A DNA stretch of 64,000 bases from an uncultured Verrucomicrobiae bacterium (GTDB taxonomy: Bacteria; Chlamydiota; Chlamydiia; Chlamydiales; Rhabdochlamydiaceae). Under the pieces are notes generated by a model, which worked only from the letters and a program-made list of their open reading frames with translations, searched no databases and had not been told where the DNA came from. The number at the start of each line of letters is the position of its first letter. Position 1 is the first letter of the stretch. The position numbers were made by a program, and so were the translations under genes. Below are positions 57,622 to 59,991 of this stretch, piece after piece. The stretch spans positions 160,001-224,000 of the forward strand of contig CAWFUG010000001.1 of assembly GCA_963818965.1 (NCBI GenBank), given 5' to 3'.

Positions 57622-59991
57622 ATGTCTGTCGATTTGTTTTCTACTAAAAGATTCGCTATTCCCTTTTTTGATTTTTTCCGGTCTGCTTTTGTGGAAATGC
57701 GGGGTGCGGATGACTCTGGACTTGTCGCAATCGAGCACCTTAAAAACTGCTCGAGGGTCTGTAAGCTGTGGTATGAGTTTGCCATGCAAATCTCTCTTAA
57801 GGTGAAGGTTCAGGGGAGCCGGTTGATCCCGATCTCTGATTACACGCCTTACTTGTACGCTTTGGACCACGGACGTAAAGACCTGGCTCCTTTCATCGCG
57901 CGGCTAGAGGCGGGATTTACAAATAGGTTTATCGCGATGAAGTGCGATGCTTTGCACCGCTACGAAATTGAGGGGGATTACAAAGTCGAAGGAATCTCTT
58001 TTGGTGCAGGGGTGGATCATGTGACCCATCACGCTTATTTGACTCTAGATCTTTTTCGTTCTTGGAGACAGTTTTTCAAAGAGTTTAAAGGAGAGCCATT
58101 GTGGGACGCTACTTGTGCTAAAGAATTTTTAACAGCTCTCCGTCATTCCCAATGTACTTCTTGCTCAGAAGATTTTATACCCCGCGCGCCTAGGAATGGT
58201 GCATTTGAGCCGCGTGAAAGCTCCCGCGGTTCGACGATCGGAAATGGGGGTAGTATTGATGAAATACAACCCCCATTTCCGATCGTCGAACCCCGGGGCT
58301 TTGACGCGCTCAAATGCACCATTCCTAGGCGCGCGGGGTATAAGAACGTGACTTTCCAAGAATTACAGAAAGGGAAACTATTTTTCTTTTCAGATAGCGC
58401 CAGTAAAGTCTGTAACCGTGGGCATTGGATCAGTTTTGTCATTTGCGAAGATCAAGTCGCAATTGGAAATCGAGGGTATAAATGTGGGGCGTATCCCGGA
58501 GTGCGTTTCTATCAGCTAACGGATGAAATGAAGACTCTTTCTATTAGGGAGTTGATTGATTTTTGTGAAACAATAAAGCACACAGAATATTTGCCTTTAT
58601 CAAGGCAATGGAGCGGGTCTTGTTCTCGGACTAGTCCTGAAGCGGCCTTTCTCGGGGCCCTTTATTTCATTTTGCAGAAAAAATATCCTCTGCTGGGATC
58701 TGATGATCTCGCAGAAAAAGGCAAAGGCATTTGGAAGGGATGGTTCAAATTCGATGCGATCCGTGGTCTTAAAACGATCATGAAAAGAGATATGGGGATG
58801 CGCTACGATCCTAATCTCCTTATCCGGATTCTCGCTGTATTTCAGGACTGCTCTGAAACAGCGGCGGAGTTTTCCCGATTTTTAAAAGAGAGAAAGCAGA
58901 TCGATTGGAGCGTATTAAATGAGACTGCGGATACTTCTGGGCGCATTCCTGCGCAGTATGTGATCCAAAGGGATAATGCTCTAGGACGAGAACAGTTTGC
59001 TGAAGAGATCGAGAGATTCGAAGAAAAACAACCGTGGCAAAGGGTGTGGAAGGAGATCTGCAATTACTATAATACAAACTCTTCTTTAAGGGATTCGCTG
59101 GAGCCGTTTCTAAATGCTTCAGCCTCCGTTGAGCAAATCGAGGCATTTTTTTCTTCTCCGGAAAGCGAGTCGTTGTGTCAGCAATGTACGACCCTCAATA
59201 TATCTAATCCCGTGGAAGGCGATGCGGGGATGACACGTCTCCCCTATAGATTGTTAAATTATCTTAGGATGCTTAAGGAATTATCTTTATACAATCACGA
59301 GATCTCTCAAATTGCGCATCTAAATTTGCCAAATTTAATTGACTTGAACCTTGGCAAGAATAAATTGACTGAATTTCCCGATGTTTCGTTTTCTAATTTA
59401 TTGGTAATAAATGTTTCACTCAATCGTATTAAGAAGGTGTGTGATTTAAATCTTCCGAATTTAGTTAGGCTGCATGCCAAAATGAATGAGATAGAGGAGG
59501 TTTCGAATTGCAACTTCCCTAAGCTATTTGCGTGCGAATTGAATGGAAATAAGCTTTCTCAGATTCCAGATTGCATCCGCAAGCTGTCTTCATTGACACA
59601 TTTGGATTTGAGAAAAAATGCGATTGCAGATGTTGGCGAGTTGCAGCTTCCCAGCTTAATTGCATTGTATTTGAGTGACAATGCGCTTACATCGGTTCCT
59701 GATTTTAGTGAGCTGTCACAATTGAAACATTTGGAGCTCATTAAAAATCATCTCCATGCCGTTCCCGATTTTAACCTGCCGCTTTTGGAAAAGCTCTCGC
59801 TTGAAATGAATAAGATCAGAAAAATGCCTCAGTTCACCCATCTTCGAGAGGCATGTAGCATTGGGCTTTGGGATAACCCTTGCAAGCCAAGTTTCCCTTG
59901 GGATAGTCCCGGGGAGGCGCCTCTGAGTGTAACTGACATGTCTCAGTTGTGCTTGGCTTTAGCTGAAGTGTCTCGGTCTGATAAAAAATAA
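57622..59991 (+). CDS. Putative effector with C-terminal leucine-rich repeats and a 55-aa palindromic insert
   Basis: LxxLxLxxNxL repeats; N-terminus paralogous to 53680; ATG 57622 aligns with the paralog start; stop overlaps the rnpB 3' end. Confidence 0.8.
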   Translation: MSVDLFSTKRFAIPFFDFFRSAFVEMRGADDSGLVAIEHLKNCSRVCKLWYEFAMQISLKVKVQGSRLIPISDYTPYLYALDHGRKDLAPFIARLEAGFTNRFIAMKCDALHRYEIEGDYKVEGISFGAGVDHVTHHAYLTLDLFRSWRQFFKEFKGEPLWDATCAKEFLTALRHSQCTSCSEDFIPRAPRNGAFEPRESSRGSTIGNGGSIDEIQPPFPIVEPRGFDALKCTIPRRAGYKNVTFQELQKGKLFFFSDSASKVCNRGHWISFVICEDQVAIGNRGYKCGAYPGVRFYQLTDEMKTLSIRELIDFCETIKHTEYLPLSRQWSGSCSRTSPEAAFLGALYFILQKKYPLLGSDDLAEKGKGIWKGWFKFDAIRGLKTIMKRDMGMRYDPNLLIRILAVFQDCSETAAEFSRFLKERKQIDWSVLNETADTSGRIPAQYVIQRDNALGREQFAEEIERFEEKQPWQRVWKEICNYYNTNSSLRDSLEPFLNASASVEQIEAFFSSPESESLCQQCTTLNISNPVEGDAGMTRLPYRLLNYLRMLKELSLYNHEISQIAHLNLPNLIDLNLGKNKLTEFPDVSFSNLLVINVSLNRIKKVCDLNLPNLVRLHAKMNEIEEVSNCNFPKLFACELNGNKLSQIPDCIRKLSSLTHLDLRKNAIADVGELQLPSLIALYLSDNALTSVPDFSELSQLKHLELIKNHLHAVPDFNLPLLEKLSLEMNKIRKMPQFTHLREACSIGLWDNPCKPSFPWDSPGEAPLSVTDMSQLCLALAEVSRSDKK
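58178..58340. mobile_element. 163-nt foldback element (family A), in frame in the LRR gene
   Basis: Perfect 33-bp terminal arms, TA duplication, absent from the paralog. Confidence 0.92.

Follow-up and report, generated by a model that had tools for sequence, protein, structure and literature searches.

To our knowledge, palindromic elements that insert in frame into genes have been a curiosity of Rickettsia for 25 years, and we know of no account of the mechanism by which they move. The Rickettsia palindromic elements (RPE) are reportedly to be credited to Ogata et al. (2000/2002). Here we describe a 163-nt foldback element inserted in frame in an effector-like gene of a chlamydia-like bacterium. 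It was found in a 64,000-nt stretch (the window, positions 160,001-224,000 of contig CAWFUG010000001.1, assembly GCA_963818965.1, forward strand), and coordinates without a contig label refer to this window. The genome is a metagenome-type assembly of 2.24 Mb in 12 contigs, labelled C1-C12, and is 88% complete. An earlier note on the window had pointed out the insertion and likened it to RPE. We read the element as a copy of a non-autonomous, foldback-type miniature inverted-repeat transposable element (MITE) that inserts at and duplicates TA and that landed in frame in this gene, and we give this reading a probability of roughly 0.8.

In the passages on RPE in PMC10969869, PMC3733652 and PMC1458961, R. 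bellii has 526 copies, 53 of them in genes; the first of these sources gives 44 copies for R. conorii, nearly half of them in open reading frames (ORFs). As these passages present them, RPE are short palindromic repeats of about 150 bp, present in many copies in an intracellular bacterium and with no transposase known, and the family described here is alike in these respects. A sizeable share of RPE also lies in frame in unrelated genes and encodes a conserved peptide, as do 9 of the 31 full-length copies found here. The present family differs in belonging to another phylum, in its clear TA duplication and defined TATAC termini, in a near-perfect nested palindrome that runs from end to end, and in frame-preserving deletion derivatives. 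At the level of behaviour the parallel with RPE holds; membership in the RPE, Correia or IS630 families is not claimed.

Two further systems share the target. Correia elements (nemis) of Neisseria insert at TA and duplicate it. The IS630/Tc1-mariner superfamily likewise targets TA and duplicates it, and MITEs of this superfamily resemble the present element in their TA duplication, short terminal inverted repeats, small size and lack of coding capacity; the present family differs in that neither a DDE_3 transposase, in its own genome or in five element-rich relatives, nor any longer element sharing its ends could be found. In the part of PMC10969869 that treats them, Correia elements are MITEs of 100-200 bp with terminal inverted repeats, RNase III acts on their hairpin transcripts, and the element is reported to invert. 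They are described there as mostly intergenic or regulatory, with promoters and an IHF site, whereas the copy at 58178-58340 has no promoter-like site. In-frame insertion into coding sequence is not a noted trait of Correia elements, whose host clade is unrelated. A search, by title and in part by passage, of the literature open without journal subscription found no such element described for Chlamydiota, in keeping with the earlier note, which named none.

An in-frame insertion with filled and empty sites

The element is a nested palindrome flanked on both sides by TA (Table 1). The insertion context reads GATTT-TA-[TACCCCGCG...CGCGGGGTA]-TA-AGAAC, and window positions 58176-58342 read TA-TACCCCGCGCGCCTAGG...CCTAGGCGCGCGGGGTA-TA. 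Element and one TA together make 165 nt, or 55 codons, which translate at 58177-58341 as IPRAPRNGAFEPRESSRGSTIGNGGSIDEIQPPFPIVEPRGFDALKCTIPRRAGY, placed between ...CTSCSEDF and KNVT.... Deletion of these 165 nt gives GAT TTT AAG AAC, exactly as had been claimed. The 31-nt arm occurred twice in the window, once per strand, and in none of 100 shuffles. The RNA fold of the element strand had an energy of -152.6 kcal/mol (z = -23), which none of 200 shuffles equalled. A promoter and terminator scan gave no signal inside the element.

Table 1. Features of the inserted element, its host gene and the copies compared with it (window coordinates)
Feature	Position	Strand	Basis or remark
Host gene, 789 aa	57622..59991	+	ATG aligns with paralog starts; insert is residues 186-240
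Foldback element, nested palindrome, 163 nt, termini TACCCCGCGCG...CGCGCGGGGTA	58178..58340		sequence, arm search and fold; member of aligned family
Left TA of duplicated target	58176..58177		sequence; metagenome joint 58175->58341 with TA..TA ends
Right TA of duplicated target	58341..58342		sequence; same metagenome joint
Outer left arm	58175..58210		pairs with 58308-58343, 36/36
Outer right arm	58308..58343		partner of 58175-58210, 36 nt, 100% complementary
Inner left arm, 35 nt	58223..58257		pairs with 58263-58297 at 94%
Inner right arm, 35 nt	58263..58297		partner of 58223-58257
Apical loop centre, 5 nt (loop word TGATGAA)	58258..58262		reverse complement of loop word in sister copies
55 in-frame codons IPRAPRNG...IPRRAGY (element and one TA)	58177..58341	+	translation, homolog alignments
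Paralog without element	53680..56238	+	empty site GAT TTT AAA at 54226-54234, single TA at 54231-54232
Intergenic sister copy, other subfamily, TATA..TATA, 167 nt	18398..18564		between ORFs 16961-18262 (-) and 18827-20227 (+)

An alignment with orthologs had been proposed as a check, with orthologs that keep the 55 residues while lacking the palindrome as the result that would speak against an insertion. All seven homologs of one alignment, and all 14 of another, lacked exactly the 55 residues, the gap falling between DF and K; the indel is thus confirmed, and no homolog without the palindrome retained them. The homologs included the paralog in the window and four other paralogs of the same genome. 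In tblastn, the matches at all five other paralog loci broke at query residue 185-186 on one side and at 240-250 on the other. The window paralog reads CTSCSTDFKKLT where the host gene carries the insert, and its empty site could be read directly, as the earlier note had maintained.

Assembled contigs (Logan) from four public soil and peat metagenome runs, X1-X4, were aligned to window positions 57800-58800 in search of an allele without the element. One X4 peat-metagenome contig (record 16, 228 nt, 7 mismatches, about 97% identical) joined 58175 to 58341. The 165 nt left out between these positions have TA..TA ends, and two letters fit both sides, so the duplication is 2 bp. This contig is an allele of the same host gene without the element. 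No aligned contig of X1-X4 bridged the filled junctions, and those of X1-X3 covered pieces of the element or of the gene only. The element core, 58208-58309, was present at depth 29-36 in short X3 and X4 peat contigs; since these run on into unlike sequence, the core is a common repeat in peat communities beyond this genome.

A second filled and empty pair was found within the same assembly. C12 76253-76419 holds a copy flanked by TA, and C5 at about 1142-1171, which is about 94-96% identical around the site, has a single TA in its place. The pair is also a sign of two haplotypes or of a duplicated region in the bin.

A multi-copy family with complementary arms

Two copies used as blastn queries found 115 loci in the genome, and an nhmmer profile built from 26 full copies found 129, of which 39 measured 145 nt or more and 31 measured 160 nt or more. 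The latter were taken as full-length copies. In their alignment, copies begin with TATAC and end with GTATA, with few exceptions.

The arms of the subfamilies diverge by up to about 25%, and the palindrome is retained. Both sides were altered in 45 of the 70 consensus pairs, and 97.8% of 2169 alignment cells were paired. None of 500 column shuffles reached any of five pairing measures, and shifting the partner by 1-3 columns cut pairing to 30-46%. By a hand count of the pairing table, about 25 of the 2169 cells were G-U. An RNA constraint would tolerate far more G-U, which argues that complementarity is kept as DNA and not as RNA. For the apical loop, copies with a given word and copies with the exact reverse complement of that word were both found (TGAGGAA/TTCCTCA, TGATGAA/TTCATCA, TGAAGAA/TTCTTCA, TAATGCA/TGCATTA). 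With the asymmetric internal bulges as reference, the loop lay one way in 19 copies and the other way in 11, one of the 31 being unclassified; the segment between the arms therefore inverts.

The sister copy at 18398-18564 is intergenic and stop-free in the equivalent frame, where it reads ILRPVRNCEFELL...RGFDALKFAIPDRAQYR, as the earlier note had stated for this locus. It is adjoined by a second, unrelated palindromic repeat family (18246-18385, C1 178246-178385; core ...GGAGGGGTAATAT...ATATTACCCCTCC...), which is found at 35 loci of the genome and includes 24 copies about 142 nt long; one more of its copies abuts the element on C12 near 76480.

Related sequence occurred in 16 of 41 related genomes, the present one included. 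It was mostly the inner core, positions about 28-132, which is the best-conserved part of the element in these genomes. In a genome of another genus (G007), which gave 26 matches, full copies share the termini, TATACCCCGCGCG...CGCGCGGGGTATA over 164 nt, equal to a 162-nt insert of 54 codons. A public protein search with the 55-residue peptide gave two carriers among 12 scored candidates, a weak measure of spread; both came from other contigs, with 78-85% peptide identity, and in one the peptide lay mid-protein. A plasmid search with the element gave no match.

A mini form was also found. It is a 47-nt deletion derivative that keeps a 13-bp stem and makes a 45-nt insert of 15 codons. It was present at nine loci with an identical junction, among them C9 192779-192825, C9 400402-400448 and C8 205413-205459. 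At three loci it lay inside long ORFs (peptide LYPARSNAPSSSARGI), one of which encodes an ABC-2 transporter domain. At C9 46272-46318 it follows the first 41 codons of the open frame in an ORF of 758 codons that has collagen triple-helix repeats and a C-terminal BclA domain. There is also a class of about 56 nt, a length counted by hand on one copy. The right half of an element, at C12 94061-94145, lies in frame in the linker of a putative MsrA-MsrB fusion recognised from its translation. On assembly, we observed that the 22.2-kb contig C4 matches itself in reverse over 21.6 kb at 99.5% and that its ends are copies of the end of C12; the whole probably reflects faulty assembly.

Frame compatibility and read-through of genes

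From TATA to TATA, 21 of the 31 full-length copies measured 167 nt, so that a 165-nt insert is the commonest size. On average 2.68 of six frames were open per copy (n = 31), against 0.83 after dinucleotide shuffles and 0.75 after palindrome-preserving shuffles. The 22 copies outside genes averaged 2.45, which indicates that stop depletion is a property of the element and not just of survivors in genes. The phase from the first T of TATA was nearly always closed (open in 2 and 0 of 21), and the other two phases were open in 11-19 of 21 copies on either strand. Four of six frames were open in the copy at 58178-58340 and three of six in the 18400 copy, and two minus-strand ORFs, 58143-58442 and 58165-58359, crossed the former; the earlier observation that both copies are open on the opposite strand was correct.

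A genome-wide count of frame-preserving against disrupting insertions had also been suggested. With read-through defined as at least 45 open codons on both sides, the 31 full copies comprised nine read-through copies, three candidate disruptions and 19 that were intergenic or at ORF edges. The read-through count includes C11 123045, in a 502-codon ORF, whose boundary was set one base off in the census. Pfam confirmed the genes at four read-through copies as EPSP synthase, TRAM with U5-methyltransferase, Sulfate_transp and a MenC-like enolase-superfamily enzyme, and the EPSP synthase domain was matched as two stretches flanking the copy. A peptide of the form IPR..RN..FE...RGFDALK..IP.R.GY recurred across read-through copies. 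The candidate disruptions were a TylF-like methyltransferase, a 166-nt copy and one weak case; a Pfam search of the upstream halves of these genes gave no match, and "disrupted" is a candidate label here.

The host gene and its family

The enclosing ORF, 57499-59991, is open throughout, with ATG 57622 as the likely start, and the frame is intact for 548 codons past the insert. Pfam placed LRR_4 and LRR_8 (leucine-rich repeats, LRRs) above cut-offs at the C-terminus of the host protein, and an F-box-like match in its N-terminal part at 17.4 bits, under the cut-off of 24.3. The same search matched no Ank family and no intein or Hint domain.

Residues 1-560 were modelled with AlphaFold2 from a 15-sequence alignment (mean predicted local distance difference test, pLDDT, 68), and the model was compared by Foldseek. 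With this model of mean pLDDT 68, matches were obtained to the Legionella effectors AnkH (6mca, E = 3e-6), LegA15 (5e-5) and AnkD (5e-4), at template modelling (TM) scores of 0.30-0.46. According to the part of PMC6712400 that concerns AnkH, its cysteine-protease-like domain has a triad of His, Asp and Cys, which lie in the motifs rGHa, D/NRg and GNCS. Across the 15 sequences of the host family, H268-W269, N283-R284-G285 and G-S-C334-S are invariant, and the AnkH-type order of His, Asp/Asn and Cys within these motifs is present. Fold and motifs thus support the description of the host protein as effector-like, with a predicted AnkH-type cysteine-protease-like region and LRRs.

The insertion point follows a conserved CxxC (C178, C181) and lies 28 residues ahead of the putative catalytic His, H268. 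Homologs have indels of their own just past this point. Prediction of the structure had been put forward as a further check; the insert was modelled as an unstructured loop, a coil with no secondary structure and with pLDDT below 50 over residues 185-242, between flanks of 78-91 and 73-95 (blocks of ten).

The host family comprises six paralogs with H / NRG / GSC motifs and variable C-termini (LRR and other). Besides 53680-56238 and 57622-59991 in the window, its loci include C11 88921-92612, C9 218481-219725 and C9 446050-447522. In a search of 26 genomes with this query, the family was found in its own genome only, and the 25 related genomes gave no match; for this reason paralogs, homologs from databases and the metagenome contig served for the comparison. 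Between the two paralogs in the window lies a gene with DUF4172 and Fic domains (56357-57469), and the first of them is closely preceded by a gene for an XerC/D-type tyrosine recombinase (52621-53550). A CT398-type protein is encoded in the window as well, and the nearest SHMT relatives bear mixed labels: Chlamydiae, Rhabdochlamydia, Parachlamydiales and "Verrucomicrobia" metagenome-assembled genomes. The source of the DNA is accordingly a bacterium of the PVC group, most likely a chlamydia-like one.

Search for a mobilising partner

No DDE_3 / IS630 transposase was found in the genome or in five element-rich relatives (0/6) in a search with the DDE_3 family. Pfam also detected no Y1_Tnp, DDE_Tnp_1_2, DDE_Tnp_1_4 or IS1380-type transposase in the genome, and a search for longer elements sharing the ends gave none.

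A 1.2-kb insertion sequence with DDE_Tnp_1, present in three near-identical copies (C1 260950, C2 149713, C9 458112), has ends (CTTTGTACAGGAC...) unlike those of the element. A 1.7-kb repeat (C2 48810-50536, C9 448489-450216), whose translation suggests a putative IS110-type transposase, does not share the ends either. On C12, 2.7 kb separate a left part of the element from a right half; the genes between them are ordinary and include no transposase. The REP/RAYT system was set aside on length, 163 nt against the 20-40 bp of REP, and on the lack of Y1_Tnp in the genome.

Discussion

The traits of a MITE are present in this family: terminal inverted repeats (36-nt perfect outer arms in the copy studied), termini conserved in 31 copies, TA duplication seen by comparison of filled and empty sites, a length of 163 nt, 129 loci and no ORF beyond the read-through frames. 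The termini are fixed, the duplication is 2 bp long, and derivatives with little left beyond the termini are mobile; these features point to a transposase supplied in trans, which would recognise the roughly 13-bp termini. That the 47-nt derivative multiplied to nine loci indicates that the termini are sufficient for spread.

A unit of 163 nt plus TA adds 165 nt, or 55 codons, each time, and a frame shift is thereby impossible. The sequence is poor in stop codons. Whichever way the element lies, two phases out of three are usually open, and read-through is therefore expected for about half to two thirds of the insertions at a coding TA. The copy studied here entered a member of the six-gene, lineage-specific effector-like family, in a stretch where homologs vary in length, probably recently. 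Translation of the mRNA would then run on across the element, and the protein would carry, and presumably tolerate, a flexible surface loop of 55 residues.

Several points weigh against this account. The nearest sister copy is just 94% identical, less than would be expected had the element jumped very recently from elsewhere in this assembly. The empty-site allele is a single contig of depth 2.1, and the run that it comes from is labelled as DNA by guess. Two sites only document the TA duplication. That the insert has a low pLDDT is partly due to its absence from the alignment. No autonomous partner with the same ends was found, and at 88% completeness of the genome its absence is unproven. 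Finally, we infer both translation across the 80-bp perfect hairpin and retention of the 55 residues in the protein.

The alternative that survives best agrees with the DNA-level account and differs in consequence only. Gene redundancy alone would have permitted the insertion, and the hairpin in the mRNA would lower expression through RNase III cleavage or ribosome stalling, the copy being on its way to a pseudogene; the element would then harm the protein and not enlarge its repertoire. With six paralogs in the genome the loss of one would be cheap, the RNA hairpin is extremely stable at -152.6 kcal/mol, and hairpin transcripts of Correia elements are cut by RNase III according to the part of PMC10969869 that treats them. 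The intact downstream frame may also mean too little time for decay, since the empty-site allele is only about 3% different. However, 548 codons remain open past the insert, with LRR domains above Pfam cut-offs, and read-through sister copies occur in single-copy housekeeping genes, EPSP synthase for one, whose loss is unlikely to be tolerated. We consider decay of the host gene possible but doubtful.

Spread without a transposase is less probable still. A hairpin or cruciform DNA intermediate would be copied by replication or repair (template switching, hairpin-primed synthesis), and this would keep the arms complementary. The failure to find a matching transposase agrees with such a route, as does the strict Watson-Crick covariation (97.8% paired, 45 of 70 pairs changed on both sides, about 25 G-U among 2169 cells), and the loop in both orientations (19/11) resembles the flip/flop of hairpin-primed replicons. 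Much of that covariation, however, was inherited within subfamilies, the cells counting sequences and not events, and recombination between the arms would also explain the inverted loop. A TA duplication with fixed termini marks the staggered cuts made by a transposase, and the 47-nt derivative still reached nine loci with its 13-bp stem alone. For these reasons we prefer insertion by a transposase acting in trans.

The earlier note had weighed a mobile element against removal at the RNA level. Homologs, the empty site and the sister copies bear out a mobile multi-copy element inserted in frame, which may yield new protein segments, and removal at the RNA level found no support. Intron- or intein-like removal, which would leave a mature protein without the 55 residues, could account for an insert that is exactly in frame and bounded by repeats, and the run with the joined form, X4, has only a guessed DNA label. 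Rfam nevertheless gave only sub-threshold miRNA-hairpin matches for the element and no intron family, Pfam gave no intein or Hint domain in the host protein, and the scarcity of G-U pairs does not suit a constraint on RNA; a self-splicing intron or intein was rejected as a model on these grounds. The X4 contig, with 7 mismatches in 228 nt, belongs to a different strain and so does not represent this gene after processing, the family is also intergenic, and the second empty site lies in genomic contigs. Removal from the transcript or protein is accordingly very improbable. An assembly artefact, in which a misplaced repeat supplied the 55 residues, is scarcely credible: the metagenome-type assembly has oddities such as the 21.6-kb self-inverted palindrome of C4 and no aligned contig bridged the filled junctions, but an assembler would not make a precise TA duplication with an exact 165-nt in-frame insert, and the copy has private sequence (94% to its nearest sister, arms 36/36).

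Returning to a MITE that inserts at TA, we put forward a further suggestion tentatively, and hold it as far from established. The family may be adapted to life inside genes, which would let it colonise an intracellular bacterium whose genome is dense in genes while supplying surface loops to fast-evolving effector paralogs, convergent with RPE and with arms copied from each other at the DNA level. This is suggested by the frequent forms, which add multiples of three (165 nt in full copies, 45 nt in the mini form, 162 nt in the one copy measured from the other genus), and by an avoidance of stops that extends to four of six frames.

Annotation is affected too: genes that bear the element will be split or cut short by gene callers and domain models. 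For the study of such elements, a chlamydia-like family that is presumably unrelated to RPE in sequence and RPE-like in behaviour offers a second system in which to ask what moves them. In it one may also ask whether the peptides are really made and whether they would give new protein variants in a family fold-related to the Legionella core effector AnkH; its assets are a clear TA duplication, defined termini of 13 bp, deletion derivatives that move, and one gene with both a filled and an empty allele in nature.

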